Positions 14,393 to 37,285 of a DNA stretch of 64,000 nt are shown piece by piece; the first letter of the stretch is position 1, and the number at the start of each line of letters is the position of its first letter. Location of the stretch: the NCBI GenBank assembly GCA_022703645.1, contig JAKLDG010000001.1:733254-797253 (forward strand), written 5' to 3'. The notes under the pieces were generated by a model that saw only the letters and a list, made by a program, of their open reading frames with translations, had not been told where the DNA came from and made no database searches. The stretch comes from Patescibacteria group bacterium (lineage in GTDB: Bacteria > Patescibacteriota > JACPGU01). The position numbers were made by a program, and so were the translations under genes.

Positions 14393-15340
14393 TTAAATCT
14401 TTATTTCTCTATTATATATCTTTCCAGAAATTTTATCTAATTTTTTTATTAGAGATATAGCAAAGCTCGGCAAAAAGCTTTTAAAAATCATCAATGAAAA
14501 AATTACATATATTATAGTCAGAAAGTTGTTTGAAAAAATAACCTTTAATAAATGAGGTCTATAATTTAAGAAATAAAAAACAACAAAAACAATGAGGTGG
14601 ATGAAACTATATGAGAATATTGGGACTGGCTCGGTCTTTAATCCAAAGAATTCTACCTCGCTATCTGCAATCTTCATTTGGCTTAATGACTCTTCTGTTT
14701 GACCAAACTTATTTGCAGGATTTTTCTTAAAGGCTTCCTCAAGATATCTTGAAATACGACCATATGGAATTTTCCTGCCAGAAATCAATAAAAGTATCAA
14801 AACTAATAAATTCGCAATCTGCTCAATTAAATATGAGATGAGATTTTTCCATGCTACTTTTGCTCTCAGATACATTCCTCTCCATGTTTTAGTTGGTTTA
14901 ATATGGAGAGAATATATCTCATTTATTATATCGCTACCAGATGCAATCTTGCCTTTTTTATAGAATATATTAGTTTTTAAATCATAAAAATAATCATCTC
15001 TTGATATTAAGTCTATCGGTTTAAATTTCTTCCTCTTTATATATCTGTCATCAATAATATATGTACTATTGTCTTCTCCTACTAGATCAAAGGAAGCTCT
15101 GACCCTTAATGGTACTTTATCACTCTCTAGCCCTACCTTATCATCAGGAAGAATAATATGAATAAGCGTTGTATATTTCTTGCCCTCTAAAATCTTGATT
15201 TTTCTCAGTATCTTTTCATCACAATCTTTTCTAGCACTAAAGCCTATCTTTGTATCATTAAGAAAAACTGGATTGATAAATCCATTGCTTTCTAGCTCAA
15301 AAGAATCTCTAAATTTTTTCCTGATTGCTTCAATGTCCAT
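14393..15340 (-). CDS. Hypothetical protein with C-terminal TM helices
   Basis: 315 aa with no recognisable motifs; hydrophobic C-terminal third. Confidence 0.45.
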   Translation of the reverse strand: MDIEAIRKKFRDSFELESNGFINPVFLNDTKIGFSARKDCDEKILRKIKILEGKKYTTLIHIILPDDKVGLESDKVPLRVRASFDLVGEDNSTYIIDDRYIKRKKFKPIDLISRDDYFYDLKTNIFYKKGKIASGSDIINEIYSLHIKPTKTWRGMYLRAKVAWKNLISYLIEQIANLLVLILLLISGRKIPYGRISRYLEEAFKKNPANKFGQTEESLSQMKIADSEVEFFGLKTEPVPIFSYSFIHLIVFVVFYFLNYRPHLLKVIFSNNFLTIIYVIFSLMIFKSFLPSFAISLIKKLDKISGKIYNREIKI

Positions 15341-15350
15341 AATTATAATT

Positions 15351-16409
15351 TCATTTTATCTGCTTATTAACTAATTTAATAAGATCTTCTTCTCTCTCAT
15401 ATCCCTTAAGTCTCCCTGATAAAATACCAAGCCTATAATTCACACCTTCACTCATTAACTGCCAGTTGGTATTTAAAAGAGTTTTCTTGATCAATTTTTC
15501 TAAGTCCTTTCTACTATTATACTCCTCTCGACCGCTTTTTTCATCCTGAATGGTAAATGAGACTATAACCGTATCGATAATTTCTGTATTTATAAATTTC
15601 AGCTTGTTGTAATTTTCTTTTTTTAATTTCTTGTTTAAAAGGTTTTCGAGGTCGGAAACTTTGAGTTTTTGAAGTTTTGCAACTGCATCGTAGATATGTT
15701 TATTCTTTTCTTTTTCTTTCATCTCTTCTATATCCTTACTAACCGTTGCCATATCCTGTTTGAACTTTATATACTTCCATCCTTCCTCATCGCTAAGACA
15801 ATATTTTTCTTTGTCTTGTAAGTAATCTGAATCCTTCTTATCCGTGTCTTTGTTTTTAATATGAACTGATTCTTTTCTATCACCACAATCAGGACAGCTA
15901 TAAATTGTTTTCATCTTTATTTTGGAATCTTTAAATTCTACATTTAATATTCCTCCGCATTTTTTACAATAATCACTTTTTGCTTCAAATTCTTTGCCAT
16001 CTTCCCAAAAAGCTCTTCGTTTATCACACTTAGGACATTGATAGAAAAATAATACTAAATCGATATCAGCTTTTTCTCGGCTAGACAAATATTTCCTGCC
16101 ATCTTGATCCATTTCGTTTTGGCAAAATAAACAAGGAATTGGGGATGGGGCTTCAGTATCTCTCAATTTATCATCTTTTGCTTTATCCGATTCCATCCAT
16201 TCTGCAATCACAGATTCTTTTCTTACATATCGTTCACCAGTTGTGAAATAGATCCATAGTTTCCAAACATACTTGTGAGCTGAGGCTTTTTCACCAGTAT
16301 ATTCTTTTACCTCTTTTGCAAAATTCTTTTCAATTCTTCTGCATTGCTCAACAGTATGCTCATCATAGAGATCGCTATAGTATATTTTTGGTTTGAGGTA
16401 GGTGATCAT
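15351..16409 (-). CDS. Hypothetical zinc-ribbon protein with coiled-coil C-terminus
   Basis: Multiple CxxC pairs (CLFCQN, CPKCDK, CKKCGG, CPDCGD); Lys/Glu-rich C-terminus. Confidence 0.5.
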   Translation of the reverse strand: MITYLKPKIYYSDLYDEHTVEQCRRIEKNFAKEVKEYTGEKASAHKYVWKLWIYFTTGERYVRKESVIAEWMESDKAKDDKLRDTEAPSPIPCLFCQNEMDQDGRKYLSSREKADIDLVLFFYQCPKCDKRRAFWEDGKEFEAKSDYCKKCGGILNVEFKDSKIKMKTIYSCPDCGDRKESVHIKNKDTDKKDSDYLQDKEKYCLSDEEGWKYIKFKQDMATVSKDIEEMKEKEKNKHIYDAVAKLQKLKVSDLENLLNKKLKKENYNKLKFINTEIIDTVIVSFTIQDEKSGREEYNSRKDLEKLIKKTLLNTNWQLMSEGVNYRLGILSGRLKGYEREEDLIKLVNKQIK

Positions 16410-16420
16410 TTATAAAGAAT

Positions 16421-17083
16421 TTATTTTTTCAATTGTTTTTTATTTTTAAAATAAAGGATTGCTATTGATAGCCACTGTGTTGGCTTTAGACTCCACTTGA
16501 GAAAACTCAAAATAAAAGATAGCGCTAAAACAATCAAGATTGTCCAATTGTTATCAAGGTAATTTAAATGTAATTTACCTATTAAAAATAATACTATTGT
16601 AAAAAATAATGAATTATAAAAAAGAAACAAAACCACTTCACCAACATAGCTAAGTTCTAAATCAGGTTTTTTCTTTTGAACTTGTTCTCTGGCATAATTA
16701 AAATATATTGAAGCATCATTTTTTTCTAATGCCTCTACAGCTTTATCTATACCATTTTTAGACTCTCCTTCGAATGTTTTTTCTGCTCTTATTAGTCGTG
16801 CTTCAGCATCATCAATATATTCTTTTATATATGAAGAAATAAAAATTATAGAAAAAATAGAAAAGGAGAAAGATAGAATAGAAAATTTATTTATACCAAC
16901 GATGTCTAACAGATACGCTATGCTTAAAAAAGCAATTATTATTCCAGCTAAACTTTTAAGAAAATCTAAATGTGACAATGTCGTTTGGTTAACATAATTC
17001 GCCACAAATAAAGAGAAATCATCCTTTGCCTTAAGTAAATCATTTATAGAATTTTCAATTACCTTTCTTTCTTCGTTATTCAT
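16421..17083 (-). CDS. Hypothetical 4-TM membrane protein
   Basis: 220 aa; four hydrophobic helices arranged in two pairs. Confidence 0.45.
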   Translation of the reverse strand: MNNEERKVIENSINDLLKAKDDFSLFVANYVNQTTLSHLDFLKSLAGIIIAFLSIAYLLDIVGINKFSILSFSFSIFSIIFISSYIKEYIDDAEARLIRAEKTFEGESKNGIDKAVEALEKNDASIYFNYAREQVQKKKPDLELSYVGEVVLFLFYNSLFFTIVLFLIGKLHLNYLDNNWTILIVLALSFILSFLKWSLKPTQWLSIAILYFKNKKQLKK

Positions 17084-17109
17084 AATCAGCTTTACTAAGT
17101 TTAATATTA

Positions 17110-17652
17110 TTAACCATTATTGAATCCTATTTTCCCTCTTTCGTCATTAAACTCTATAATCCAAATGACTGCTCGCCCCTTTTTCATCTCAATATAAAAA
17201 GAGTCTATTTTACTTGTTGGTTTAACAATAGGTTGATAAGTAAGTATTTGGCACAATTGATGAAAAAAAGCATACCAGTTATTCTGATCAGAAACTAGTC
17301 TCACCGATACACCATGATCCTTGAAAAGCCCTACCATTTCCCTACCTAGCTCATCTAGCCCAATGAAATTAAGATGTTCGTTTTTATCGATAGCAAGTTC
17401 GGTCTCATTTTTTACTACACTACTATCAATTCGCTCCATAATATCCCGAATATTTTTTGGCTGTTTATTATTCTGCGGATGCAAAACCCAATTACAATAA
17501 AACCACAGGGTATTATATATTTGTTGCTTGCTTTCTGATTCTATTAACTTCCTAATTTCTGCCATCAAATATACTACCTCACACTCTTCCTTAAATGGCA
17601 GGTGTGTATCTATAAAACTTACTAATTTTTCAATAATCTCATTTGTTGCCAT
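17110..17652 (-). CDS. Hypothetical cytosolic protein, 8 nt downstream of the STAND NTPase
   Basis: 180 aa; no recognisable motifs. Confidence 0.45.
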   Translation of the reverse strand: MATNEIIEKLVSFIDTHLPFKEECEVVYLMAEIRKLIESESKQQIYNTLWFYCNWVLHPQNNKQPKNIRDIMERIDSSVVKNETELAIDKNEHLNFIGLDELGREMVGLFKDHGVSVRLVSDQNNWYAFFHQLCQILTYQPIVKPTSKIDSFYIEMKKGRAVIWIIEFNDERGKIGFNNG

Positions 17653-17660
17653 ATTCTTTT

Positions 17661-20600
17661 TTATAAAACATTCTCCCTTAACATATAACCAATAACTGAA
17701 CCCTTGTTAATTAGGAAATCTAAAAGTACCAAAACATTTTGCTTTAAATCCATTGTTTTCTTTATTTTCTCACGATTTTTATAAACGTATTTTTTGACAA
17801 GATTTTCTAAGTAATAAATTGTATTTACTTCAAATTTTGCCTTTGATAGATTATCGTTATTTTTTAGCATACCAGAAAGCCAAGATATTCCATCGTCTAG
17901 GTAGGGGCTTCCAATATCATTTAGCAATTTTGATATTGCATATAGAGCAGACGAACAGTGACCAAGTTTTTCCGTAATTTCCTTGAAGAAGGCTTTGTTC
18001 TCATCTTTAAGTGTGTGCCACTCAACAACCGACTCTTTCCAAGGATTTTGAGCAAAAAGATAACTTTTTACAACTTTACTAACATACCGATGTCCATCAC
18101 CTTTTTTGCACATATCGATTATTTTTTCTTTAAAAATACCCCAAACTTCCCAAAAATTTTCATAAGAGTTTAAACAATCCTCGGCAGATATAAATTCTTC
18201 GAACAAATCAGCAATTGCTTCTGAACTGTTAAATTTATCAACAAATGGCTTTAGGTATTCCGAAATTTCTTTTTTAGGTGAACTTAAAATAAAATAAGCT
18301 AATTTCTTCAAAAAATCGTGTTTAACTTTATAATCAACTCTATCTTCTCTGTTATTTGAAATAATTTTTTCAGCAAAAGCAGAGATAATCTTTTTAACTA
18401 TTGTTTTATGTTCCTCGCGTTCTGTCTTAAGTGGAATTAGCTGAAAGGCAGTTTTTAATGTATATAGATCTATACTCTCAACGTCTTTTATGTCGCTTAT
18501 CAATAATTGATCGTCTAAAATCTTGTCTAAATCAGCATTACTATCTCTCAAAAATTTCTTCATTATGCCACTGTCTCGTATGTTATATTTGTGCTTTCTG
18601 TAATTTTCTTGGCGGGTTTTTTCTTGTAGTGCGTCAAATTTAGGTTTTAATAATAAATAACCAATTAGAATTGATTGTGCATCCTCAAAAGAAATATCCC
18701 ATAGTTTTTGAATGGCAATAATTGCAAAAGTGTTAAAACCAGTGCCAGCGATATCAATTGGATAGTAATTAAATAGATTAAATATCAACATCTCCTTAAT
18801 ATCTCTTTTTTTATCCGGATGTTTTTCTAGTAAAATTGGCAGTACTGAAATTGCTGATTGTACCCCGTCAGTTGCTCGATATTGATAATTTGGGTCAGAA
18901 GATACAGAGGCCACTTCTATAACCATGCTCGCGCAAAGATCTATTTCTTTTTCTGTGAACTTATCCCAAAAGTCCTTTATCAGTACGGAACAAACCTCTA
19001 CTGGAATAGAATGATTAAGAAGATAAAAACCTTCTTCTTCTGAGTGTTGGGGTTTAAAAGACTCTAGTTTTTTAGATGTTTTTAATTTTGCAATGATTTC
19101 TTTAGCTTCTTTAAGTGCGAGCTTCGGATTATCTTCGTATTGTTTATACTGCTTATAATTTTCATCATTCCTAATTCTGTAATTTACCCATAATTTCAGC
19201 TGAGCGTACTTCATTGGCTCAGAACTTTTTTCTAGTGATTTCTCACTGTATTCTTTTAGCTTCGGATCAATTTTAGGATTAAAACTAATTAAGTACCCAT
19301 CCTCGTTTTTTTCTGAAGCAATATTCATCTTTCTTCTATCCATTCTTGCAAGAAAAAGCCTCCATGTTTTATCAGACTCTGTTTCCACTGATGAATCTGG
19401 TAGTTTTTTATAGTAGTCATCCAATATTTTCCATAATACCTTTTGTCTATTTTTTAAATCTTCTTCATCTATACCTTCACTTCTAAATAATTGGTAATTC
19501 AAGAACAAATTTTCTAAAGACAATTTTCTGTGTTTATCGTCGCAGGCTTGTATTCTTTCTGCTTCATGAAATTCGTTTTTTGAGTTACCGCCACCAAATG
19601 CTTTCAACGATTGAAGCATACCTTTGTGTCCTTGATCTAAAACCAATCTACCTGTATCGCAAAAGAAGAAATCTTTTGTTTTGAAAAGAATTTTAGCGAT
19701 ATTAAAAGTTTTTTCAGGATATGCCAACACGACGCTTGTTACAACTGCCGAGATAGAGGTAGACCTTGAATTTTTAATAAGATGAAACAGCCAGATCTCT
19801 AATGTTTTTGAATCAGCAGCCTTTCCATTTTCAAGGAAAAATTTTTCTAATGCCATATGCATAGATTGCAAAACATATGGCGCTGGTGCCGATGATCCTC
19901 TATACATATTCCAAAGTCTTCCATTTCTGCTGTCGTATTGTTTTATTGTTTTATCTTTTTCAATAAATACCTCAACTTCTTCAACTTCATATTTAGCGAA
20001 TTCAGTTTTAGCAAAGTAATCTACCGATTTATTCGTGAATTTTAAAATAAAGTCTACTGTTTCTTGAAGCGAAGATTGTAGAAGCCAATAAATGGGAGTT
20101 TGATATGAGCTAGCAGGAAAATAATCTAAATGCTCATCTTCCATGTCAAAATGTTCTTCCATACCTATTCCAGGGCGGCTATAGTAACGATCTTCTTTCG
20201 GAGTAAATGACCAAAACAAATCAGCCAGTTGCAATACATACTTGGGAAGAGTTTTGGCAACGGCTACACCTTCAAGCTTCGTTAAAATCATTTCAGACAA
20301 ATCATAGTATGGATCTCTGTGGTTCTTCCACTTATTCTTTACAATTTCTTTAAAAATTTCTTCTAGCTCATTTTTAATTTCAAGGGCGCTATAAAGAGTT
20401 GTCTGCAATAAGTTGTTTTTTGTACCATCGTCAGAAATAAAAATATTTTCTTTTATAGTCCATTGATAGTACTTTAATGCAATTAAACCAGAATATTTTG
20501 TAGTTTCTCCCTCCTTAAATTTACTAGTCCAATCATGAATTATTGGCAAAATGAAATGGATGTTTTGATTACCTAACTTATCAAAATTCTCAAAAACAAA

Positions 20601-22481
20601 TTTTATAAGACATTCCCACCCTTGTCCTTTTGGCTTCGTTAAAACGTACTTTAAAGAAAAAATATTTAAGTTTTTAACTCCCAACTGTTTAAAAAAGTCG
20701 TTGTCCACTTCCTTGCAAGCAATTCTTAGTAGAAAAAATATTCTATGCAATAAACTCTCCTCGTATTTATAGTCAACGGTTACAGACTGAACAACCTTAG
20801 AAGAATTGTTATATTTAACGACTTTTTCAGGCACACCCAATAATTCATTTTTGAAAAAATCAAAAAACACACAAGAGAAATCCGAAAGTAAAACAGAGAC
20901 TAGTATCTCATCCTTCCAGAATGATTCTATATTTTTGTTTTTTATAGCTTGTTTGATTAACTCCTTTATCTCCTTACTTTGTAATAATAATTTTTCAGAT
21001 ACCCACTTTCTGAATGCTCGACGTAAAGGCAGTGAGCTACCTATACTCTGAAAGAAAGTCTTAATATCAGTTTTTTTAACAAATTCTACTTCAATATTTT
21101 TTTCTAATGCCCATTCTTCATAAATATCGTGCGTAATAAAATATCCATGCGGTGATTCATATCCTAAAATCCCATCCTTTTTTAATTCATCCAAGATACC
21201 TGATTCACAAGCGGGAATAATAAAAAATTGTCCATCAGTTGCTCTTTGGAATGCCATTTTCAAAAAACATTGTTCTCTTGTAGGTTTAGATTTAATAATT
21301 ACTTTGCTCCATAATTTATCTTTAAATTCTGTATAGTTGGTTTGTTCTCCTTCTTTATAAAACTTTAAATATTCATTTAGGTAAAATGGATTTCTGATAA
21401 GGTCTACTAATCTTTCATCATTGGGAAGTACAAAACTATATGTACCGGAAAGAGAGCTTAATTCCGTTAAGTCTAAATTCTGAATGTTTATATTTAGGGG
21501 TGCAATTTTATATATCTCGAAAAATTGATAGTTTAAATCTTCTAAGTAATTATCTCTGGTTGTAAAAATAACTTTCCAGTTTTCCTTTACTAAAATAGAT
21601 AAAAACTCCTTAAAAGGATCCGTGTTTTTTAAATCTAGCAACTTCTCCGCAGAATCAATCACAATAATTTTATCTGCTTCCTCTTTTTGCCCATCCAAAA
21701 AATCTTGGAAACTATAACCTCTAAAAAATTCACTTATATTTCTTAATTCAAACTCAGTTGCCTTAAAAAGATAGAAAGGTGTCTTATCTTTTGTTTTCTC
21801 ATAAAAATCTTTGATGAGTGCTGTTTTCCCGACTCCACCAACACCACTTAGAATCAATACTTTTTCTTGGCTGATTTTTATTTTTTCTAAATCATCGCTC
21901 CTGTCTATCTTGATGTTTTGATTGTTGAAAGTAATAGCGGTTTGTATCTCATTCAAAATATTTTCGGAATGAGCCTGTTGGTTTTTTATCAGGTCAAAGA
22001 TACTTTTATCTAAACTGAAAAAATGTTTAGTTATAATTTCATTGTCTGTAGAAACAAACGGGGATTCAAAATAGCTAGCCATATTCCATACCAATTTAAT
22101 CCCAAGTTCATTCGCTTTTTTCTTAACATCTGTTTTTCCTTGTGGCTCTTTACCTTTATTTTGACCCCATTCTTGATTGGTATAAAAAACAAACTTTGTA
22201 ATATCAGGATAATCTCTTTTAGTCTTTTCGAGAGCATTAATAATATCAGTCTTACATGTAGTCTTTGATAAAGAATCACCATAAAATTTAGCTTGCCATC
22301 CGATTATTTCTTCTCCCTCTTTAATTGGATCATTTTCTATACCAGATTGATTTTTATAACGAAATATACCGGTATCTTTTTTATATTCTCTACAAAATAA
22401 TAAATAGCAAAACCACTCAAAATTACTTTGAGGATTTTCACTAAATTTTGCTTCGAATACAGGCCAGTTAGGTTTAATCAT
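17661..22481 (-). CDS. Giant STAND (NB-ARC-like) NTPase with N-terminal Mrr-like PD-(D/E)xK nuclease motif and ~1,300-aa helical C-terminal region; Avs4-like antiviral ATPase architecture
   Basis: Walker A GVGGVGKT, Walker B KIIVIDSAE and hhhhTTR motif KVIFTTRD. N-terminal ...NDPIKEGEEIIGWQAKFY resembles the Mrr_cat D...QxK motif. 1606 aa. Confidence 0.55.
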   Translation of the reverse strand: MIKPNWPVFEAKFSENPQSNFEWFCYLLFCREYKKDTGIFRYKNQSGIENDPIKEGEEIIGWQAKFYGDSLSKTTCKTDIINALEKTKRDYPDITKFVFYTNQEWGQNKGKEPQGKTDVKKKANELGIKLVWNMASYFESPFVSTDNEIITKHFFSLDKSIFDLIKNQQAHSENILNEIQTAITFNNQNIKIDRSDDLEKIKISQEKVLILSGVGGVGKTALIKDFYEKTKDKTPFYLFKATEFELRNISEFFRGYSFQDFLDGQKEEADKIIVIDSAEKLLDLKNTDPFKEFLSILVKENWKVIFTTRDNYLEDLNYQFFEIYKIAPLNINIQNLDLTELSSLSGTYSFVLPNDERLVDLIRNPFYLNEYLKFYKEGEQTNYTEFKDKLWSKVIIKSKPTREQCFLKMAFQRATDGQFFIIPACESGILDELKKDGILGYESPHGYFITHDIYEEWALEKNIEVEFVKKTDIKTFFQSIGSSLPLRRAFRKWVSEKLLLQSKEIKELIKQAIKNKNIESFWKDEILVSVLLSDFSCVFFDFFKNELLGVPEKVVKYNNSSKVVQSVTVDYKYEESLLHRIFFLLRIACKEVDNDFFKQLGVKNLNIFSLKYVLTKPKGQGWECLIKFVFENFDKLGNQNIHFILPIIHDWTSKFKEGETTKYSGLIALKYYQWTIKENIFISDDGTKNNLLQTTLYSALEIKNELEEIFKEIVKNKWKNHRDPYYDLSEMILTKLEGVAVAKTLPKYVLQLADLFWSFTPKEDRYYSRPGIGMEEHFDMEDEHLDYFPASSYQTPIYWLLQSSLQETVDFILKFTNKSVDYFAKTEFAKYEVEEVEVFIEKDKTIKQYDSRNGRLWNMYRGSSAPAPYVLQSMHMALEKFFLENGKAADSKTLEIWLFHLIKNSRSTSISAVVTSVVLAYPEKTFNIAKILFKTKDFFFCDTGRLVLDQGHKGMLQSLKAFGGGNSKNEFHEAERIQACDDKHRKLSLENLFLNYQLFRSEGIDEEDLKNRQKVLWKILDDYYKKLPDSSVETESDKTWRLFLARMDRRKMNIASEKNEDGYLISFNPKIDPKLKEYSEKSLEKSSEPMKYAQLKLWVNYRIRNDENYKQYKQYEDNPKLALKEAKEIIAKLKTSKKLESFKPQHSEEEGFYLLNHSIPVEVCSVLIKDFWDKFTEKEIDLCASMVIEVASVSSDPNYQYRATDGVQSAISVLPILLEKHPDKKRDIKEMLIFNLFNYYPIDIAGTGFNTFAIIAIQKLWDISFEDAQSILIGYLLLKPKFDALQEKTRQENYRKHKYNIRDSGIMKKFLRDSNADLDKILDDQLLISDIKDVESIDLYTLKTAFQLIPLKTEREEHKTIVKKIISAFAEKIISNNREDRVDYKVKHDFLKKLAYFILSSPKKEISEYLKPFVDKFNSSEAIADLFEEFISAEDCLNSYENFWEVWGIFKEKIIDMCKKGDGHRYVSKVVKSYLFAQNPWKESVVEWHTLKDENKAFFKEITEKLGHCSSALYAISKLLNDIGSPYLDDGISWLSGMLKNNDNLSKAKFEVNTIYYLENLVKKYVYKNREKIKKTMDLKQNVLVLLDFLINKGSVIGYMLRENVL

Positions 22482-22621: not shown

Positions 22622-23392
22622 TTAAATATGCAATCTTAATTTAGAAAGTTTTGCGAAGGTCTCATTCTTCTCAATCCCAATCCAGTCTCTTCCTAACTTC
22701 TTTGCTACAAAAGCAGTTGTTCCACTCCCCAAGAATGGGTCGAGTACCATGTCTCCCTTGTTTGATGAAGCTATAATAACTCTTCGTAGAAGTTCTTCGG
22801 GTTTTTGAGTTGGGTGTGCAGCTCTGCCATTTGCGCCTCTCAATCTTTCTTTGCCTTGCACCAAGGGTAGTTGCCAAACATCTCTCATTTGTTTTATTGA
22901 GCCATCTTTTTGTTTATCAGGATTTATTTTTTTCAAATCTTCATAATTAAATTTCCAATTTTTACCTTTCACCGCCCAAACAATAAATTCTATTGAATGA
23001 GTAAAAACTCTCTTTGTCATATTAGGCATGGCATTTGTTTTTTGCCAGATTATAACATTGTTGATTTTGAAACCTAGTTTTTTTAGAACCATCATAATTT
23101 CAGCTAAGTTATGATGTGTGCAGGATACATAGATTGATCCATTATCTTTAAGGGCTTGATGACAACCAGCAATCCAATCATTTGTAAATTGCAGATATTC
23201 CTTATCGGTCATTTTATCCCAATCTTCATTTACCATATACCAATCACCACCAGTCTTATTTCCTTTCCACTTCAAAGCATTGCCAGATAAATTATATGGT
23301 GGGTCTGCAAAAACTAAATCGATTGACTTCGCGTCAATCTTTTTATTTAGAATTTCTATGCAATCACCTTGATATATAATATTCTTTTTCAT
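22622..23392 (-). CDS. Beta-class N6-adenine/N4-cytosine DNA methyltransferase (DpnA/M.PvuII-like)
   Basis: Motif [13 protein letters not shown] precedes motif [14 protein letters not shown]. 256 aa. Confidence 0.8.
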
Positions 23393-23394
23393 TT

Positions 23395-25227
23395 TTATGC
23401 TTTAGATAAAATAGATTTTTGCCAACTATTTATAACTTGTGGAATCTCTTCTAGCCATTCCTCGGAGTTACTAACCCTTCCTGTTATTTCGACTACATCA
23501 TTATACAATTCAAGTAATTCAGAATGTTTGAATAATTTTCCGCTCTCTTTTACTTTCAATAAAGTGTCTAACATTTTTACAAGTTGATTTATGGATAAAG
23601 GAATGATTCTTTGTTCTGTTCCTTTATATCCATATTTGATGGCCATCCAAAAAGTTTCAACCGTATCTTGATGCAATTTAGGAGCAATAAACAAACAGTA
23701 AGTATTTTTATTAGAATGACTATTTTCAAAATCTCTTAGGTGTCTCATTACTGGTTGTCCTTCGTTATACCACTGATCACGACTCACCAACATAGTAACT
23801 TCACAAACAGAATTAAACTTTTCATAAAAACATTCTATATCGGGCTTATTTGCTGGAGCAGTAAATGTCGGCTCATTGTCATCACCAACCGGATAATTGG
23901 GTTTTATGTCTATAGCATCGTTTAAAGCATTCAATGCTAAGGTAGCCAATCTCTCCAACTCAATACTCTTTTTAGATTCAGATTGATAGATGTTTTTTAA
24001 TAGATCTATATACTCCCTAACTTTATCCAAGTCTTGGGACTCATCATGAATTTCTATGTTTTGTAATTCTCTTCGATATAATCTTAGATCTTCAATATAC
24101 TTTTTGAGCTGATCGATATTTAATACACCGATGTCTTTGAAACTAAAGATAGGTACTTTCGCTCCCTCGCTCACTAAAGCATCAAGATATTCTTTATTGT
24201 CTCTTTCCAATTTAGTTGCAATCTTTATCAAGTTATCTTCTGTTTCCCACGGCAATGTTGGTTCATTAATGTCAGAAATATAAGAAAGATATTTCTCAAC
24301 ATTCTCAAATACAATTGGTGAGGCATTATCTGATTTTAGTAATGCCTTTATTTCAATTTCTCTCCTCGGCTCTAGATCAATATGAAATCCTCCGCCTCTT
24401 ATATGAATATATCTTGTCAAACGAAAATACCTAATCGCATTATCGCCATAATCTTTGAGATTATTTAGCAATAGCTCAACCTCTCTTACACTTTTTGTTT
24501 TGAGAAACTTTTTGGCAAAATTCTTTTTATATTTTTCTCGATATTTTCTTTTTTCCTTCTCGTCTTTTATTTTTCTTAGTCCATCTCTAAAATCGACTAC
24601 CGCATCCGCTTGCTTTCCGATGTTTTTATGATCTATCAATGTTGGCACAAAAAGAGAAAACTCTTCCTTGGTAATCCCAACTGGTTTATTGCCAAGAGAT
24701 TCCCATCTTTTATTTACCTCATTGATAAGATGTAGTGTTCCCACAAAGGGCTTTATATTAAATCCATCATCTTCAGAAAATGTTTTACTATCAGGATTTG
24801 GTAATTGCCATTTCAAAAAGTGAATAAAAAATACATTTCCCAGATCATAGTCTTCAGATAATAATAATTTCCCCAAAGATGTTATCTTAATTTGCTCGGC
24901 AGAATTTTTAGCAATGCAAAACCCCATCTTATTTAATGGAGCCACAGAATTTCTTCCCCTCATTGCAGGATCTTCATAATGTTGGTTATGAAAAATTCTT
25001 TCGGCTACTGCAAAAGGCATTTCTTTTTCTATATCGTCAAAATAACTCTCTTGCTCTTTGGTTAGGTCGGTTGGTTTATATAACTTATTTTTTATTAATA
25101 GAATCTGATATTTAATTTGATTTTCTGATCCAAAAGATTCCCCTTCTGATTCTTTGAGTACTTTAAGAAAACCCCGTAAACGCTCGGGGTTTCTAACTGT
25201 TGTTGATATTGACCACGGTTTTTTCAT
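23395..25227 (-). CDS. Putative type IIS restriction endonuclease, AlwI/BstNBI/PleI family
   Basis: 610 aa between two MTase genes. N-terminal [13 protein letters not shown]...LKVL and [12 protein letters not shown], and C-terminal YCLFIAP...RIIPLS, resemble N.BstNBI-family enzymes as recalled from memory. Confidence 0.5.
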
Positions 25228-25229
25228 AG

Positions 25230-26393
25230 TTAATTATTAACCTTACAATAAAATACTCTCTCGGTATGCCCGTCAGTTTCACTTCTGCCAGTAGAAAATG
25301 CCCTGTAGTCTCTTTCGAATACTTCAACCTCGCCCTTCTTTTTTAATATGTTCACAATTTCACTATCCTTAATTCTTGAATTAGATCTCCCGTCTTTTTT
25401 CTCACCAGTGTTATTGTAGGAAACTAAAATGTGTTTACAGTTTGCATTCTCTATTAAATCTTCAAATGCTTTTTTAGCACTCTTTAAACAATACTGGCTT
25501 TTCAAGTGTGTCCGATCCATTTTCTTCGCCTTGCCAAACACTTCTGGCTTTCCCCATTCAACAAGGTTTTCTAATAAATGATAAGAGTCGCAATATTGAC
25601 GTGAATTATATGGTGGATCCATATATAATACATCGCATTTTATTTTTCTTATAAGTGTATTTGCATCTTCTCTATAAACCTCGTTATTGGTATTATTTTC
25701 CAAATTGATAGTTGGCGCCAAAAGCTCTAACGGATTAATACTATCAAGATTTTTTCTATATGCATCATAATGGCCTACAGTGTTGGCAACTTTATCTGCT
25801 GCATATATCAACGATGTTATTAAGGCAAACTTCTCCTCATCGCTTTCAGCTATTGACTCTATTTTCTCTCTTATAGCACCAATCTTTTTTGCATTTTCTA
25901 TAGTGAAATAAGTGCCACCATAATATTTTGAGAAATAGTTATCATCATTGGACTTAATGCTATTTAAAAGATTGATCTTTTTCTTTAAACCATCAATATT
26001 CACATTTTTTGCGTCAAGGAATGTCTTTAGCGGAAGGTAATTGCTAAGCAGAATGTCATTACTAATAACCTTTATATTCTTATCATTAAATCCCTCTCCA
26101 ACGACTCCTGTTCCTGCAAAGATATCACAAAATGATGTGATTTCCCCGCACTTCTCGTTTACAATATCTTTTATAAAGTTTATCAGTTTAAATTTGTTAC
26201 CTAGATACCTTCTATTCTGAATTTGAAATTTGCCCTCAATGTTTTGTGTCTTGGGATAAAAATATACCTTTTCAATTTTGCTCACCTCTAAGGTAGCTTC
26301 ATTTGCCCTTTCTTTACCAAAAAAGTCAAAGCCAAAAAGAGGGGCTTGAATGGCAGTAGATAAATTTGTATGTTTGTTTTGAAGTTGAGACAT
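25230..26393 (-). CDS. Alpha-class (Dam-like, D12) N6-adenine DNA methyltransferase
   Basis: Motif I DIFAGTGVVG precedes motif IV LYMDPPYNS. Confidence 0.8.
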   Translation of the reverse strand: MSQLQNKHTNLSTAIQAPLFGFDFFGKERANEATLEVSKIEKVYFYPKTQNIEGKFQIQNRRYLGNKFKLINFIKDIVNEKCGEITSFCDIFAGTGVVGEGFNDKNIKVISNDILLSNYLPLKTFLDAKNVNIDGLKKKINLLNSIKSNDDNYFSKYYGGTYFTIENAKKIGAIREKIESIAESDEEKFALITSLIYAADKVANTVGHYDAYRKNLDSINPLELLAPTINLENNTNNEVYREDANTLIRKIKCDVLYMDPPYNSRQYCDSYHLLENLVEWGKPEVFGKAKKMDRTHLKSQYCLKSAKKAFEDLIENANCKHILVSYNNTGEKKDGRSNSRIKDSEIVNILKKKGEVEVFERDYRAFSTGRSETDGHTERVFYCKVNN

Positions 26394-26665: not shown

Positions 26666-27184
26666 TTAATTATAGCTATCAATTATCTTGTCACCATCTC
26701 TATCATAGAAACAAGAGGGACTATAACTACGCCAACACCATTGCAATTGAGTCCCGCTACCATAATTTGATGGATTAATAGAGTCGGGTTGGCTACCATA
26801 CGATTCAACAAGCATATCATAACTCATGCCAACCCATATCTTCCCATTTGCAACACCTTCGCATTCTTCAACGGTCCATAAAGGGTGCTGTTTCCAGATT
26901 TGGCCAGCTCTTGAATTTTGCCATTCTGGATCAGCTAATTTTTGAGCCGTAGCTTCGGCCCTCTCCTCTTTAGCCTTCTCAACTTGTTCGCTCTGCTCCT
27001 TAACAGCTTCATTCCAGCTATTATTAGCCATTATCATTGGGATCGTGATTATAGCTATCACCACCACCAGTGCAATCCAACATCCTTTCTTTTTTGACTT
27101 CGCACCTTTTAAAGATGATTTACAGTGTTTGCAAAACTGGGCATCATCTTGTATCTCCTCTGCACATTTTGGACACTTCTTCAT
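26666..27184 (-). CDS. Zinc-ribbon membrane protein (N-terminal CPKC...CKHC, single TM, extracytoplasmic Trp/Cys-rich domain)
   Basis: MKKCPKCAEEIQDDAQFCKHCK followed by TM segment IALVVVIAIITIPMIM. Confidence 0.5.
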   Translation of the reverse strand: MKKCPKCAEEIQDDAQFCKHCKSSLKGAKSKKKGCWIALVVVIAIITIPMIMANNSWNEAVKEQSEQVEKAKEERAEATAQKLADPEWQNSRAGQIWKQHPLWTVEECEGVANGKIWVGMSYDMLVESYGSQPDSINPSNYGSGTQLQWCWRSYSPSCFYDRDGDKIIDSYN

Positions 27185-27370
27185 AAATTCTCCTTTCTAA
27201 TAAAAAACACCGCAAAAATATGCGGTATTTAATACTAAGATTATTATTGCTAAATTTTATATTACATTTTTGTAACATGATCCTTGGTCGGTTTTTATAT
27301 TTTTTAGTGGAAAACACAAAGCTCCCCACCAGCGATGGCTTGCGCCACCCACACCCCTTTCGAGGCATGA

Positions 27371-27420
27371 CCGACCAAGGTGCTCTGATGGAGAGCTTTC
27401 TACCTTGGTCGGATTTTTTG
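27371..27420 (+). terminator. Strong intrinsic terminator: 11-bp stem ccgaccaaggt/accttggtcgg with nested 5-bp hairpin, followed by TTTTTT
   Basis: Perfect inverted repeat plus T-run on the plus strand. The preceding ~80 nt are GC-rich. Confidence 0.65.
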
Positions 27421-27561
27421 CCATATCCTACAGATGTAATGCAGGGGTTAGGCAACTAAATTGTTAGCATCATTTTAGCATGCAAAACCGTTAAAGTAAA
27501 GCTATTAATCCCCGTATCGACTCACATTTATATACATCACAAATCAGGGATTAACAACAAT

Positions 27562-27764: not shown

Positions 27765-29123
27765 ATGTTAAAAGAAAATCAGTTAAAAGTAATTCAAGTT
27801 CCCATCAAAGAACTTAAACCATCTGAATATAATCCAAGAAGATGGTCGGCTGATGCTATCAAACAGCTTAAGGATAGCATAACAAGATTTGGGCTAGTGG
27901 ATCCAATCATAGTAAACATTGCGCAAGGACGAGAACAAATCGTAATTGGGGGCCACTTTAGATTAAAGGTCGCCAAAGATTTAGGATTTCACGAAGTACC
28001 GGTTGTGTATCTCGATATCCCAGACGTTGAGAAAGAAAAAGAATTAAACATCAGATTAAACAAAAATCTGGGTGAATTCGATTTCGATCTTCTAAAAAGT
28101 TTCGGAGAAGATTTTCTATCAGACCTTGGATTTTCATCCGAAGATTTGGATAGAATATTTGAGGTTGAGGACACGCCGGAAATGTTTGATTTAGAAAAAG
28201 AATTAAAAAAGCTGGATATTAAGAACATTGAAATCCAAAAAGGAGATCTCTGGGATCTTGGCGGAAGCAGAATGTATTGTGGAGACTCTACAATAGAAGA
28301 AGATATGCTAGCGCTGATGGGGAAAGAAAAAGCAGATATGGTTTTGACGGATCCGCCATATATTCTTGATTATCTAAAGGGAAAGAAAAAACATGGCAAA
28401 GCAATTGAAGGGTTCGGATATAAAAGAGACAGAAAATATCTTGAAACAGACTTTTTGCCTGAAGACTTTACGGAAAAATGGATGACTAACGTTCACAAAG
28501 TTCAAAAAGATGATTTTCACATCATTGTTTATGAGAACTGGAAAAACATTCGAACCATATGGAATGAGATGGAAAAATACTGGAAGGTAAAGAATATGAT
28601 TGTTTGGCACCTGCCAAATCGTGTTCAAAATTTCTCATCAAAATATAAGCTCTTTAACAAGCATGACATAGCAATGGTTGGTACCAATAAGGACTTGGGA
28701 TTTAATTTTGAGCAAGAGAACAGGGAATTGCAAAATGAATATGAAACAGCTCTTTACGCGATAAGCGGAAAACCAGCTTGGGAATCATACGAAAAAGGAA
28801 AGAAATATTGCCCAACTGATTTTATCGAATTTAATGCTGCTGATGAGAAAAGTTCGGGCCAAGGAATTATATTTGGCACGAAACCAACAGAGATATTGAT
28901 TCCATATATAAAAATACTGACCAAAAGAAATGATTTAATTTTAGAACCGTTTGGTGGTAGCGGTAGCACTTTAATAGCGGCAACAAAAATGAAGCGTCGA
29001 TGCTATCTTATGGAAAAATCACCGATATATGCGGAAGTAATTAGAAAGCGCTGGGAAAATCTAACAGGCCAGAAAGCTAAACTGATCTCAAAAAAGGAGG
29101 TGAAGGATGATAAACAAAAGTAA
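27765..29123 (+). CDS. ParB-like nuclease domain fused to beta-class DNA methyltransferase
   Basis: N-terminal ParB-N motif (KPSEYNPRRWS...GGHFRL). MTase motif IV VLTDPPYIL and motif I EPFGGSGSTLIAA. RBS AAGGAGG. Confidence 0.8.
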   Translation: MLKENQLKVIQVPIKELKPSEYNPRRWSADAIKQLKDSITRFGLVDPIIVNIAQGREQIVIGGHFRLKVAKDLGFHEVPVVYLDIPDVEKEKELNIRLNKNLGEFDFDLLKSFGEDFLSDLGFSSEDLDRIFEVEDTPEMFDLEKELKKLDIKNIEIQKGDLWDLGGSRMYCGDSTIEEDMLALMGKEKADMVLTDPPYILDYLKGKKKHGKAIEGFGYKRDRKYLETDFLPEDFTEKWMTNVHKVQKDDFHIIVYENWKNIRTIWNEMEKYWKVKNMIVWHLPNRVQNFSSKYKLFNKHDIAMVGTNKDLGFNFEQENRELQNEYETALYAISGKPAWESYEKGKKYCPTDFIEFNAADEKSSGQGIIFGTKPTEILIPYIKILTKRNDLILEPFGGSGSTLIAATKMKRRCYLMEKSPIYAEVIRKRWENLTGQKAKLISKKEVKDDKQK

Positions 29124-29538
29124 GGTTCAGAAAACATTATTGGAACAACTTTCCAAAATGCCAATTATCCAAGTAGCCTGCGACAAAAGTGGCGTAAGCA
29201 GGGCTACATTCTACAGAATGTGCAAAGAGAGTAAGAAGTTCAAGGGAAATACAGATAAAGCCATTCAACAAGGAAGGCTCCTTATAAATGATATGGCTGA
29301 AACGCAGATCATATCAGCGATTAAAGATCGGAATATAACAGGGCTGATTTATTGGTTAAACCACAATCATCCATTGTATAAGACTAGGATAGAAATTGAG
29401 GCTAACCACAAAATCAATAATGGAAAAATCAGTAAGGAACAGGAGGCTTTAATAAAGAAAGCCATAGGATTAATGATCCCCAATAATAGCAAAAAGGGAT
29501 CAGCCCAAGACAATATTCCAATAAAAGACAATGAGTAA
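29107..29538 (+). CDS. HTH protein, putative terminase small subunit
   Basis: 143 aa with an HTH (VACDKSGVSRATFYRMCKES). Its stop overlaps the start of the large terminase gene. Confidence 0.45.
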   Translation: MINKSKVQKTLLEQLSKMPIIQVACDKSGVSRATFYRMCKESKKFKGNTDKAIQQGRLLINDMAETQIISAIKDRNITGLIYWLNHNHPLYKTRIEIEANHKINNGKISKEQEALIKKAIGLMIPNNSKKGSAQDNIPIKDNE

Positions 29539-31102
29539 AAGATTGAATTACAGAAACAACATTATAGACAATAAAACCATGAAACGCATTACTGAGGACC
29601 CAATTTTTAGAGCAGAATTGTGTCGCAAAAGTTTCAAATGGTTTTTTATTGTTTATTTTGCAGATTACATAGAATACCCAATAGCAGAATTTCATAACGA
29701 ATTATTCGAAATTGCGGAAAATGAAAAAATAAAAACCGCAGTGATTACCGCCTTCAGGTCATCGGCAAAAAGCACAATTCTTACTGTGGCTTATGCAATA
29801 TGGGCAATTCTTGGACAACAAAATAGAAAGTTTGTTGTACTTGTAAGCCAAACCCAAGAACAGGTTCGTGTTCACTTCAAAAATATCAAGAGAGCATTGG
29901 AATCTAACACTCTTTTGAAAGAAGATTTGGGACCATTTGAAGAAGATGAGTGGAATTCCGCTTCGATAGTAATAACCAAACTGAATGCAAGGATTACCGC
30001 TCTATCTTCTGAACAAAGCTTCCGAGGCGCGATCCATGGGCATACTCGCCCCCAATTAATCCTGTGCGATGATATAGAGGATACCACCTCAGTAAAAACT
30101 AGAGAGGGACGGGATAAAATATATAAATGGTTCAATAGCGAAATCATGCCTTTGGGGGATCAAAATACCAGGACAATAGTATTTGGTAATTTAACCCACG
30201 AAGATTGTCTATTGATGAGATTAAAGAAAGAAATAGAAAGTGGTGAAAGATCAGGAATTTACCGAGAATACCCCATGATCGATGAAAATGGTAAAATCCT
30301 TTGGCCGGGCAAATACCCAAGCGAAGAAGCAATTGAAGAAGAAAGAAAAAAAATGGATAAATTCTCTTTTGCTAGAGAATTCATGCTCCAAATAATCGAT
30401 GATCGAGAAGCCGTAATAAACAAAGAGGACATCCATTATTATGCTGGCAAAATCCCAGAGCCACTGAGAAATCAATCATGGAGTTATGTCACTGGGATAG
30501 ACTTAGCAATCTCGCAAAAGGATAGCGCTGATTGTACAGCGATGGTAACCATGAAAATAATCGGCGAAGACGAAAAGATGCGAATATATGTTTTACCGCA
30601 TCCTATCAATGATAGGTTAACTTTTTCACAAATATTAGAAACTGGAGTTACTCTTTCTCAAAGTTTGGGCGGGAGAGGTAATAATCTATATTGCGTGGAA
30701 GAAGTGATGCTGCAAGGCTATCTAACTCAACACTTCAAAGATAATAATCTTAACGCAGAGGGAGTTAAGATAAGTGGTATGGACAAAAGAACCCGACTTA
30801 TAATGACATCTGATTGGATAAGAAAAGGAATTATTCTGTTCCCAGAAAGAGGCGCAGAAGATTTGATAAAACAAATCTTGGGTTTTGGGGTTGAAAAGCA
30901 TGATGACTTGGTGGATTCTTTTACTATCGCTATCTTAAGAACGATTAATAATCCTCCGGAAGAAATTATTTCTTTAGCTTTTTGTCGTTCATCAGATGAA
31001 ACTGACGGTCATGGTTCCATACCTGAGGGGTATCATTATAGTAAACACACTGTGCTTAGAGGCGATGATTTTGTAACAGAATATCGCCTTACACCAAATT
31101 AA
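29531..31102 (+). CDS. Phage terminase large subunit
   Basis: Walker A AFRSSAKST, Walker B LILCDDIED and a C-terminal RNaseH-like nuclease region with conserved Asp residues. Confidence 0.8.
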   Translation: MSKRLNYRNNIIDNKTMKRITEDPIFRAELCRKSFKWFFIVYFADYIEYPIAEFHNELFEIAENEKIKTAVITAFRSSAKSTILTVAYAIWAILGQQNRKFVVLVSQTQEQVRVHFKNIKRALESNTLLKEDLGPFEEDEWNSASIVITKLNARITALSSEQSFRGAIHGHTRPQLILCDDIEDTTSVKTREGRDKIYKWFNSEIMPLGDQNTRTIVFGNLTHEDCLLMRLKKEIESGERSGIYREYPMIDENGKILWPGKYPSEEAIEEERKKMDKFSFAREFMLQIIDDREAVINKEDIHYYAGKIPEPLRNQSWSYVTGIDLAISQKDSADCTAMVTMKIIGEDEKMRIYVLPHPINDRLTFSQILETGVTLSQSLGGRGNNLYCVEEVMLQGYLTQHFKDNNLNAEGVKISGMDKRTRLIMTSDWIRKGIILFPERGAEDLIKQILGFGVEKHDDLVDSFTIAILRTINNPPEEIISLAFCRSSDETDGHGSIPEGYHYSKHTVLRGDDFVTEYRLTPN

Positions 31103-31211: not shown

Positions 31212-32618
31212 ATGGGTAAAATAAGTGGCAATTTAGTGAGCCCAGTAAGAGAAACTGGGAGCCAAAACTGGGTCAGTTTTGAGCAGGATACTAAGGTGAG
31301 GTACTGCCTCTACGCTAGAAAATCAACAGAAGATGATGAGAGGCAGGCATTATCTATTGATTCCCAGATCAAAGAGATGCTGGAATCAGCCCAAAGAGAA
31401 GGGCTGGAGGTGGTGGATGTAAGGCGAGAGTCCCACTCCGCTAAGAGTTCGGGATGCAGGCCAGTATTCAACCAAATACTGATTGATATTAAGGCCGGAT
31501 TGTTTAATGGAATTTTAAGCTGGGCACCGGACAGGTTAAGCAGAAATGCCGGAGATTTGGGAACCGTCGTAGATCTTATGGATCAGGGACATCTGAAACA
31601 GATTAAAACTAACGGTCAATCCTTCACCAATTCTCCTAATGAGAAGTTCATGCTAATGATCCTCTGCTCTCAGGCAAAGCTAGAAAATGATAATAAAGGT
31701 GAGAATGTAAAAAGAGGATTGAGGGCTAAATGTGAGCTGGGTTATCGCCCAGGGATGACCCCCCTCGGATATCTTAATGAATATATCGGGATCAAGGGAA
31801 AAATGAAGATCTTCCTTGATCCCGTTCGGGCTCCCATTATTAGAGAGATGTTTGAAAAAGTAGCTTATGAGAACTGGAGCGGTAGAGATCTGTATAGATG
31901 GCTCGTAGATGAAAAAGATTTTAAGACCAGGACAGGTCATCGATTTACTATTAGTGGAATATTGAGAACGCTTGGGACACCGTTTTATTATGGAGAGTTT
32001 GAGTATCCTGAGGGATCAGGCAACTGGTACAAAGGAGCTCATGAACCATTGATAACCAAGGAATTATTCGAAAAGGTGAGAGCCAATATGGCAGTAGCAC
32101 CCAAGGCAAGACCTGGATTAAAGGAATTTGAATTTACAAAACTAATCAAATGCGGAACCTGCGGTAGAACTATCATTGCAGATGAGAGATTCAGAAAATT
32201 AAAAGATGGGGGTATGAATAGACATGTCTACTATCACTGCACTCAGAAGATCGAACGAGAATGTCATGAACCACCTATCGGCGAAGAAGAATTGATAGAA
32301 CAGATGGTAAAGCTGATTGATAAAATGAATTTTAGAAAAAGAAGTATCAGTGATAGAATCAAAAACGAAATACTGAAATACAATAGGTTTTCTGAAGTGC
32401 TCTTCGGAAATCAATACCTGGAAAAAGAAAAAGTTAAATCAGACCAGCAAAATATTAGGGCGTACGCCAAGTACGTCCTCCGAGAAGGAACAAAGGATGA
32501 GAAAAGGGAATTACTAACAGATCTAAAAACAAAATTGGTACTACATAATAAGCAGATATCATTAGAGGATGAGAAAATCATAAATAGCGTAAATAAGCCA
32601 GAAATTGACAAACAATAA
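31212..32618 (+). CDS. Large serine recombinase (phage-type serine integrase)
   Basis: Resolvase-like catalytic domain YARKSTEDDERQALSIDSQ. Recombinase domain and zinc ribbon CGTCGRT...YYHC. Confidence 0.85.
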   Translation: MGKISGNLVSPVRETGSQNWVSFEQDTKVRYCLYARKSTEDDERQALSIDSQIKEMLESAQREGLEVVDVRRESHSAKSSGCRPVFNQILIDIKAGLFNGILSWAPDRLSRNAGDLGTVVDLMDQGHLKQIKTNGQSFTNSPNEKFMLMILCSQAKLENDNKGENVKRGLRAKCELGYRPGMTPLGYLNEYIGIKGKMKIFLDPVRAPIIREMFEKVAYENWSGRDLYRWLVDEKDFKTRTGHRFTISGILRTLGTPFYYGEFEYPEGSGNWYKGAHEPLITKELFEKVRANMAVAPKARPGLKEFEFTKLIKCGTCGRTIIADERFRKLKDGGMNRHVYYHCTQKIERECHEPPIGEEELIEQMVKLIDKMNFRKRSISDRIKNEILKYNRFSEVLFGNQYLEKEKVKSDQQNIRAYAKYVLREGTKDEKRELLTDLKTKLVLHNKQISLEDEKIINSVNKPEIDKQ

Positions 32619-33794: not shown

Positions 33795-33840
33795 ATTATT
33801 TAAAATAGTTTTTCTGCCATTTATTATTAATTTCACAAAA

Positions 33841-36906: not shown

Positions 36907-37193
36907 CTCAGGGGGTGGGGGTCGAACCCACAACCTATCGGTTACACTTAATCCCTAGCTTTCGCTAAAGCGTGGACTATATCTTTGCCGTGTTCTAAAA
37001 ATAGAATTTAGGCATCTCGGTATCTAGTCTCTACGGCGCTCTCCGCCAAAGCGGAGTTCCCACGGTATTAGCATGCCCACCCAAGGCGGGTTTAGCCTTC
37101 ACCGTTATCCCGAGAAGTTCACCTCGCTGTTTCCAACGAGGGCTGCGTTTTATGTTTTCACAGCCGATTGCTCCACCATTGAGCTACCCCTGA
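36907..37193 (-). tRNA. tRNA-Asn(GUU) interrupted by a 215-nt group I intron in the anticodon loop (after U35)
   Basis: Exons reconstruct the cloverleaf: acceptor TCAGGGG/CCCCTGA, D-arm GCTC-AATGGTG-GAGC, anticodon arm ATCGG-CTGT^TAA-CCGAT, T-arm GTGGG-TTCGACC-CCCAC, discriminator G. Confidence 0.8.
36945..37159 (-). ncRNA. Group I self-splicing intron
   Basis: P1: exon GGCUGU pairs with the intron guide sequence GCAGCC, with a U-G pair at the 5' splice site. R element AGAGACUAGA and S element AAGAUAUAGUCC form P7. Terminal G precedes the 3' exon. Confidence 0.75.
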
Positions 37194-37285
37194 GTCGAAC
37201 TCTCTACAAATGCAATGTTAACTTACAACTAACTATATTTAAAGGCCCCTGACAGGGATGGGTCGGAAATCACCCCACCGTCCCT

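Follow-up and report, generated by a model that had tools for sequence, protein, structure and literature searches.

An undescribed defence-cargo slot in integrated elements of Patescibacteria, with two candidate defence families and an anchor protein without a fold match

Hotspots of anti-phage defence have been described in P2-like prophages and P4-like satellites, where they were defined as small high-turnover loci between two conserved genes (PMC9122126, Rousset et al. 2022). A second point of comparison is offered by phage satellites of the phage-inducible chromosomal island (PICI) and minimalist types, which are small integrated islands with an integrase and a small-terminase-like gene in which no capsid or tail genes are recognised. 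The Patescibacteria, or Candidate Phyla Radiation (CPR), have tiny genomes and few cultured members, and their mobile elements and immunity are little known. Here we describe a locus in a 64,000-nucleotide (nt) stretch of a patescibacterial metagenome-assembled genome (MAG), taken from a contig of 867 kb and referred to as the window (assembly GCA_022703645.1, contig JAKLDG010000001.1, positions 733,254 to 797,253; coordinates below are those of the window), in which a block of four open reading frames (ORFs), A through D, follows a gene for the STAND NTPase Avs4. The block probably consists of two independent cargo genes (A and B) of a variable slot, the conserved flank of that slot (C) and a gene beyond it (D). 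A recombinase/terminase element would carry all four in its variable arm.

Avs4 (AVAST type 4) is a single-protein STAND defence that senses the phage portal. Avs1-4 have been described as sensors that bind terminase and portal directly (PMC13581612). The gene next to the block on its upstream side, called Avs-like in an earlier reading made from the sequence only, is a full-length member of this family; its product matches the PADLOC model PDLC02169 with 2259.9 bits over residues 1-1606 and the NCBIfam model NF041815 with 2106.1 bits against a cut-off of 1500. Because this is a full-length match to an 'AVAST type 4 anti-phage nuclease' model, the protein should carry its own effector. Literature searches returned no description of the element reported here and none of accessory genes for Avs4. 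The block and the upstream gene are as follows (A to D from the ORF list).

17661-22481, minus strand: Avs4 (AVAST type 4 STAND NTPase), 1606 aa, full length; slot cargo
17110-17652, minus strand: gene A, 180 aa, soluble; slot cargo
16421-17083, minus strand: gene B, 220 aa, four transmembrane (TM)-like segments; slot cargo
15351-16409, minus strand: gene C, 352 aa; conserved flank (anchor) of variable slots
14393-15340, minus strand: gene D, 315 aa; past the anchor, either second-zone cargo or first host gene

Much of the sequence-only description of these genes was borne out. The four minus-strand ORFs have the sizes and the packing it gave them, at coordinates that match the ORF list, with gaps of 8 nt between Avs4 and A, 26 between A and B, 11 between B and C, 10 between C and D, and 10 between D and the next gene. 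A hydropathy scan agrees with a soluble A (no TM-like segment) and a 4-TM B (four segments), and finds none in C, whose four CxxC pairs are at residues 93, 125, 148 and 172. For D, the C-terminal placement of the membrane part held and the single anchor did not, as the protein is multi-pass, with 3-4 TM-like segments that all lie in its C-terminal half. The source annotation labels each of the four 'hypothetical', and, in keeping with the earlier finding of no recognisable motif, none reaches the threshold of any family in Pfam, NCBIfam, PADLOC or PHROGs. When profiles of the four families were run against Protein Data Bank (PDB) sequences, only generic zinc-ribbon or insignificant matches came up. 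Homologs of about full length exist for every one of them, and on that basis A through D are taken to be real genes rather than chance ORFs.

A slot bounded by a ParB-methylase and gene C

Relatives of C were surveyed at 81 non-redundant loci, with genes called in up to 10 kb on either side, and relatives of A at 80 of 251 metagenome places; within the C loci, relatives of the other genes were sought with single sequences and then with family profiles. Neither search recovered a relative of A, B or D at any C locus. The A loci contain no relative of Avs4 or D, and their sole match to the B profile (L126) is weak (E = 8e-4), falling in a partial 94-aa ORF on the opposite strand. At one A locus (L109), A is followed by a 162-aa gene that bears no relation to B, and that gene by C. 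The closest relatives of C (62-65% identity) have different neighbours, and in three independent contexts of B and two of D the other three families are absent. Avs4 itself was found at a single C locus (L035), which lacks A and B. There it precedes C by 7 nt and is 44% identical to Avs4 of the window; it was found at no A locus and in no B or D context. Judged by co-occurrence, none of A to D is an accessory of Avs4, and because they show no conserved association with it we do not regard them as part of the Avs4 system.

The four genes had been proposed from sequence as a single module supplying effectors or accessories to the STAND gene, with a neighbourhood that should recur in related genomes. 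That proposal fails on each count: the families are distributed independently across the C and A loci, the four-gene neighbourhood is kept around neither C, A, B nor D, and no conserved link to Avs4 exists. A through D are probably a composite and not one co-inherited module. The impression of a defence-flavoured neighbourhood stands, since the arm holds an AlwI-type restriction-modification (R-M) system together with Avs4, and relatives of A and B repeatedly lie beside defence genes. The caution that tight packing is weak evidence was also well placed, equally close spacing running on into the genes after D; in such genomes, operon-like tight packing does not equal a functional module.

The genes that cluster around C lie mostly upstream of it and on the opposite strand. 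They comprise a fusion of a ParB-like domain to a DNA methylase (ParB-methylase, 44 loci), a small terminase-like protein of ~140 aa (TerS, 31 loci), a large serine recombinase (29 loci) and a large terminase subunit (TerL, 23 loci). In the common layout, seen at 38 loci, the recombinase, TerL, TerS and ParB-methylase genes succeed one another on one strand and are followed by 0-11 genes and then by C on the other; backbone genes are present upstream at 34 of the 57 C loci that have at least 9 kb of upstream sequence. The flank and the R-M cargo of the window are the following.

27765-29123, plus strand: ParB-like N-terminal domain fused to an N6/N4 DNA methylase (PF02195, 1.5e-11; PF01555, 3e-22)
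22622-26393, minus strand: AlwI-type R-M system, three genes; slot cargo
25230-26393, minus strand: D12 N6-adenine methyltransferase of the AlwI-type system (PF02086, 3.9e-31)
23395-25227, minus strand: AlwI restriction endonuclease (PF09491, 1.4e-87)
22622-23392, minus strand: N6_N4 methyltransferase of the AlwI-type system (PF01555, 4.8e-63)

The interval from ParB-methylase to C measures 256-9648 nt and holds between zero and 11 genes, with C directly abutting the ParB-methylase in seven loci. Among the 118 slot proteins tallied are type I, II and III R-M proteins, Shedu SduA, MADS mad2, ThsB-TIR, SAVED and Schlafen/AlbA_2 proteins, and a LexA/S24 repressor lies in the slot of seven loci. 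The gene next to C on its upstream side can encode a large protein, such as a KAP NTPase, a type IIG R-M enzyme or, in L035, Avs4. The slot of the window contains the AlwI-type system (two methylases and the AlwI endonuclease), Avs4, A and B, with a terminator-like hairpin (22599-22581) between the R-M system and Avs4. By its gene content the interval appears to be a defence hotspot.

The boundaries of the slot were located by comparing related elements whose ParB-methylases are 86-89% and whose C genes are 78-79% identical. Between L027 and L034 (ParB-methylase 86%, C 78%), nucleotide homology extends over a structured RNA (LOOT, see below), TerL and ParB-methylase, breaks, and restarts 9-12 nt inside C; the intervening cargo is a 203-aa gene in one element and a gene for a 1087-aa KAP NTPase in the other. 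In the comparison of L020 with L025 homology on the C side is restricted to the C ORF, and in that of L034 with L057 it stops 183 nt after the C stop codon. Because homology breaks at the start of C and again 0 to ~180 nt past its stop, we read C as flank and not as cargo: it appears as an island of conservation between two variable zones, and as such forms the conserved flank of the slot. The zone after C is mixed, with DUF4238, AbiV, AbiJ and DUF5677 proteins and recombinases that give way to plainly chromosomal genes. Slot content may be exchanged by recombination between related elements, with C and the ParB-methylase side serving as homologous flanks, as proposed for P2 and P4.

The likeness to the P2 and P4 hotspots lies in a short, high-turnover locus with two conserved flanks and mostly defence systems between them, and the features compared, namely an apparently integrated element, conserved bounds with turnover between them and an enrichment in defence genes, recur here. 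The locus differs from those hotspots in its patescibacterial host, in a backbone of serine recombinase, TerS, TerL and ParB-methylase in which no structural genes are recognised, in an anchor protein without a fold match, in a slot that reaches 9-10 kb, and in the presence within the backbone of the LOOT RNA.

The element and its LOOT RNA

The arm of the window diverges from the plus-strand backbone and runs from the LOOT RNA through the AlwI-type system and Avs4 to A, B, C and D. Taken with the backbone genes listed here, this arrangement indicates that the block lies in an integrated element of Patescibacteria of ~20 kb.

31212-32618, plus strand: large serine recombinase (Resolvase, 7e-20; Recombinase, 3.7e-14; Zn_ribbon_recom, 1.5e-6)
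29531-31102, plus strand: large terminase subunit, TerL (phrog_38, 6.3e-76)
29107-29538, plus strand: small terminase-like protein, TerS, a weak assignment (phrog_309, 4.9e-6)
27334-27454, minus strand: LOOT RNA (RF03000; Rfam 98.5 bits against a gathering score of 46.4, model positions 1-121)
26666-27184, minus strand: 172-aa zinc-ribbon protein, first ORF of the arm after LOOT (ORF list)

The 172-aa protein has weak zinc-ribbon matches in Pfam, below cut-off, and matches PHROGs families of unknown function. On viral contigs, close relatives of TerL (43-49% identity) always occur in a compact module of ParB-methylase, TerS, TerL and serine recombinase, and only distant ones (31-36% identity) are followed by large genes that are possibly portal or structural. 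Cluster matching and gene size, applied to related loci that were not scanned against PHROGs, revealed no recognisable structural gene in or next to the module, nor was a replication module (primase/helicase or Rep) recognised among the recurrent genes, many genes being unannotated. A complete prophage was considered and rejected, as these criteria brought out no structural gene in any example. The element shares with phage satellites its small integrated form, an integrase together with packaging genes, the lack of recognised structural genes and, in 11 loci, a LexA/S24-type repressor; it differs from them in having a large serine recombinase and its own TerL, and in that no replication module is recognised. 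It resembles packaging-gene-bearing satellites, a likeness from which we claim no membership. At L062, L071, L078, L091 and L031/L088, TerS and ParB-methylase are kept and TerL is absent in several. At L031 and L088 the arm of cargo and C lies on the other side of the module, in the order C, LOOT, one further gene on the same strand, and then TerL, TerS and ParB-methylase on the opposite strand, an arrangement to be expected if the usual order were circularly permuted.

Within the window the LOOT RNA heads the arm and is followed by a terminator-like hairpin (27230-27205); it overlaps a probably spurious 103-aa ORF with a TTG start (27147-27455). Rfam detects LOOT at full length, with 70-85 bits, in five of seven minimal loci. 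A wider survey, which used a model built from the LOOT sequences that Rfam had found, placed it in 39 of 95 related sources (for example L017:5079-5203, L066:5787-5917 and L048:11203-11325). It usually adjoins the serine recombinase. The RNA ends at most 150 nt (typically 48-90 nt) upstream of an ORF on the same strand in 24 of 34 cases, and a clear terminator-like hairpin follows it in 11 of the 34. It stands at the head of an arm ending in C at six loci, the window included, and immediately 3' of C at three. To our knowledge LOOT is an orphan motif found only in metagenomes, and the main text of the 2017 paper contains no discussion of it. If our reading is true, this RNA gains a genomic home.

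No terminator-like sites were found between Avs4 and D, and promoter-like matches within the block are at or below chance (57 found against 67 expected), which makes co-transcription of A to D plausible. The genes would probably be transcribed by read-through from upstream promoters, possibly one proximal to LOOT, and in a compact genome such read-through would yield co-transcription without functional coupling. In the scheme that we favour, Avs4 would act alone. A and B would be two small factors, each with its own part in defence or merely associated with it; B would probably act at the membrane together with R-M systems, and C might, with low confidence, serve the element itself.

Several observations weigh against this placement of the four genes in a mobile arm. 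About 40% of C loci have no backbone gene within 10 kb. Among viral contigs seeded with TerL, C is within reach on one only, many of these contigs being trimmed at the ParB-methylase. Neither replication nor structural genes are recognised in the element, no convincing att-type direct repeats bound it, and its ends in the window are unmapped. The gaps from C to D and from D to the next gene, annotated as a DHH phosphoesterase, are both 10 nt. The defence roles of A and B, finally, are a matter of guilt by association (three B contexts and the tally for the A family). We dropped the idea that C is a universal core gene of the element, since TerL-seeded loci mostly have no C within reach; it is the one recurrent gene of that arm. 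In favour of the placement, the window contains, near the recombinase end, the host genes dnaG and rpoD (by Pfam) as well as a tRNA-Asn gene, and relatives of dnaG and rpoD flank the recombinase end in two other genomes (L022 and L047).

A broader interpretation is possible, though we hold it to be doubtful. It would make ParB-methylase, TerS, TerL, serine recombinase, LOOT and C the parts of undescribed, minimalist, satellite-like elements of Patescibacteria that trade anti-phage cargo, in which A, B and other unannotated slot genes would be new defence genes, C would be an element regulator or a recombination or packaging factor, and LOOT would be a leader RNA controlling variable gene sets. 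Should the composite reading of the block hold, ParB-methylase and C could be used as an anchor pair for mining phylum-specific defence genes from short metagenome contigs, and A and B would be the first candidates to come from such anchor-based mining.

The proteins of the block and competing explanations

The C family has at least 173 full-length members at 35-65% identity and occupies 310 places in ~186,000 species genomes, nearly all of them labelled CPR/Patescibacteria. Seven of the eight CxxC cysteines are invariant in the family alignment. The AlphaFold2 (AF2) model (predicted local distance difference test score, pLDDT, 89) begins with a helical hairpin at the N-terminus, continues with a double zinc ribbon rich in beta structure and with long helices at residues 196-263, and closes with a ferredoxin-like domain, in which the most conserved motif of the family, TNWRLMSxG...YRLG...GRL, is located. 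Against PDB and BFVD the fold has no match with E < 1e-3; the best, insignificant matches are to S24e/S6-like proteins over the C-terminal domain, and a weak one is to a phage 'restriction alleviation' Zn-ribbon protein (E = 0.08). Matches of the family profile to PDB are generic zinc ribbons (E >= 0.007), and no known zinc-ribbon family (HypA, TFIIB/TFIIS-type or FmdB) reaches its curated cut-off, the best score being 21.5 bits for HypA against 28.9.

The MAGs that contain some of the C loci (L021, L041, L013, L037, L043 and others) bear the labels Methanoregula, Woesearchaeota, Gammaproteobacteria, Bdellovibrionales or Bacteroidetes; these loci may be on mis-binned or mislabelled CPR contigs, or the element may reach beyond Patescibacteria. 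Three genomes contain two C-family loci each (L023 and L077 in JBAZYY01, L062 and L071 in CAZXCI01, L046 and L064 in JBAQNP01), from which it follows that even a small CPR genome can have room for two or more copies of the element or of its arm.

C might itself take part in immunity or in countering it, for example as a Zn-ribbon protein that regulates neighbouring defence systems or acts on them in the manner of restriction alleviation. Its position 3-30 nt downstream of defence genes in many loci fits this, as do its patchy occurrence across CPR with two copies in some genomes, its absence from most TerL-seeded examples of the element, and the weak fold match to the restriction-alleviation protein; in the model, two zinc ribbons and an RRM/ferredoxin-like domain would suit nucleic-acid binding. 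Yet C keeps its place and 35-90% identity while the systems upstream change wholly, from R-M of all types through Shedu, KAP and Avs4 to nothing at all, a constancy that argues against a specific partnership. In addition, no effector domain is recognised and all fold matches are insignificant. We therefore consider an immune role of C unlikely, and suggest, with low confidence, that it may be a nucleic-acid-binding protein that serves the element, for example in regulation or in the control of excision or packaging, and not an immune effector.

For A there are 22 homologs and the 251 metagenome places given above. The AF2 model of A (pLDDT 83.5, predicted template modelling score 0.81) is mostly helical with a small C-terminal beta-sheet, and the predicted fold has no match in PDB; two motifs, EECEVVYLMxEIRK and RFYCNWVLH, vary little or not at all. 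Among the neighbours of A there is an enrichment in ABC ATPases of the AAA_21/AAA_15 type (OLD, GajA, PtuA and AriA-like; seven of 150 neighbour proteins), as at L006, where an A relative lies beside a methyltransferase gene and an AAA_21 ATPase gene. Several R-M types, mad2/mad3, trypsin-like proteases, HNH and T5orf172 proteins are also encoded nearby, and none is a constant partner. A is likely a stand-alone or loosely partnered factor. Scans of viral contigs found A at a single locus and no relative of B or D. The A relative at L008:3021-6787 has as its neighbours an HTH/M78-peptidase pair and a set of multi-ubiquitin, prokaryotic E2 and ThiF (E1) genes, with RhuM and LtrA fragments on the other side.

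The B family has 78 cluster representatives, and its alignment shows conservation of R87, E88 and D91 (R-E-x-x-D) and of G148 and E149 (G-E). Its relatives adjoin R-M genes in all three independent contexts.

L098-L100: Mod-B-Res, gaps of 0 and 12 nt (type III R-M); operon at L098:6201-11408, also in L100
L183:56-6587: Mod-B-x-x-Res
L181/L182 (L181:4426-7212): methyltransferase, MutH-like restriction endonuclease, B

Such placement suggests an undescribed membrane accessory of R-M systems, and B is likely a membrane protein that works with them. Where relatives of B sit between mod and res at gaps of 0-12 nt, they hold the place of a type III R-M accessory gene, and a ClpP-like gene of L001 holds the equivalent position; B of the window differs in that it does not adjoin an R-M gene, the AlwI-type system being 5.5 kb upstream with Avs4 and A in between. 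We are not aware that a role has been described for a membrane protein of this kind. In L001:1642-7153, a gene for a 202-aa ClpP-family protease lies between a Mod-like methylase gene and a ResIII/RE_endonuc gene in a type III-like R-M system, which is followed by a gene for a 941-aa KAP NTPase and then by C.

Taken together, the contexts suggest that A and B are small genes that act in defence, or are associated with it, separately from each other. They could instead form a rare two-gene defence pair, a soluble sensor with a 4-TM effector, to which C and D are unrelated. The two genes are adjacent in the window, 26 nt apart and inside the defence slot, both families are associated with defence elsewhere, and the partial ORF of L126 matches the B profile. 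Against a pair, that weak, opposite-strand match is the only trace of B at the 80 A loci, A is missing from the three B contexts, and the gene that follows A in L109 is unrelated to B; we consider the pair quite improbable.

The D family is rare, with nine matches, eight besides D itself. The protein has a soluble N-terminal half with an HIKPTK motif and hydrophobic segments with an NNFLT motif, and no structural or family match. Two contexts of D relatives (L010 and L011) are uninformative, and one relative adjoins hisS and a shikimate dehydrogenase gene. From its position, D would be a rare membrane protein outside the slot, either cargo of the second zone or the first host gene. Genes are packed uniformly throughout the region and those that follow D resemble host genes; these points, along with the hisS neighbourhood, would also agree with A through D being ordinary chromosomal genes of the lineage, unrelated to a mobile element or to defence. 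That explanation is very unlikely for the block: A, B and C are patchy, and their relatives keep company with R-M, Abi and recombinase genes; homology between related elements breaks on either side of C; and the recombinase/terminase module lies 10 kb away on the same island. D alone may be such a chromosomal gene.

We give almost no credence to an operon-encoded accessory or effector module of Avs4 such as those of abortive-infection systems, for which the same-strand gaps of 8-26 nt, the lack of terminator-like sites from Avs4 to D, the membrane proteins B and D and the second Avs4 upstream of a C homolog (L035) would speak, but against which stand the absence of A, B and D relatives from the C loci even by profile, the absence of Avs4 from the A loci, the company of B relatives with R-M genes and not with STANDs, the lack of A and B in L035 itself, an Avs4 that should own its effector, the seven loci at which C stands by itself next to ParB-methylase, and the equally tight spacing of the genes that follow.

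Features beyond the recombinase

Directly after the serine recombinase gene lie two paralogous genes of 377 and 410 aa (32661-35073, plus strand), which share nucleotide stretches 74-88% identical to each other; the 410-aa paralog has a chagasin-type peptidase-inhibitor domain just at threshold. They are followed by a ricin-type lectin gene (35099-35677, minus strand).

Next to an intact tRNA-Asn gene (37286-37357) is a second tRNA-Asn copy (36908-37195, minus strand) that is split at the anticodon loop. Its 5' half (37157-37195) and 3' half (36908-36944) are 92-95% identical to the intact gene, and the copy receives no ARAGORN call. Repeats related to tRNA had been considered as att sites and turned out to be this split copy. 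The insert of ~212 nt between the halves matches the group I intron model RF00028 at full length, with 35.7 bits (E = 2e-7) where the gathering score is 50.

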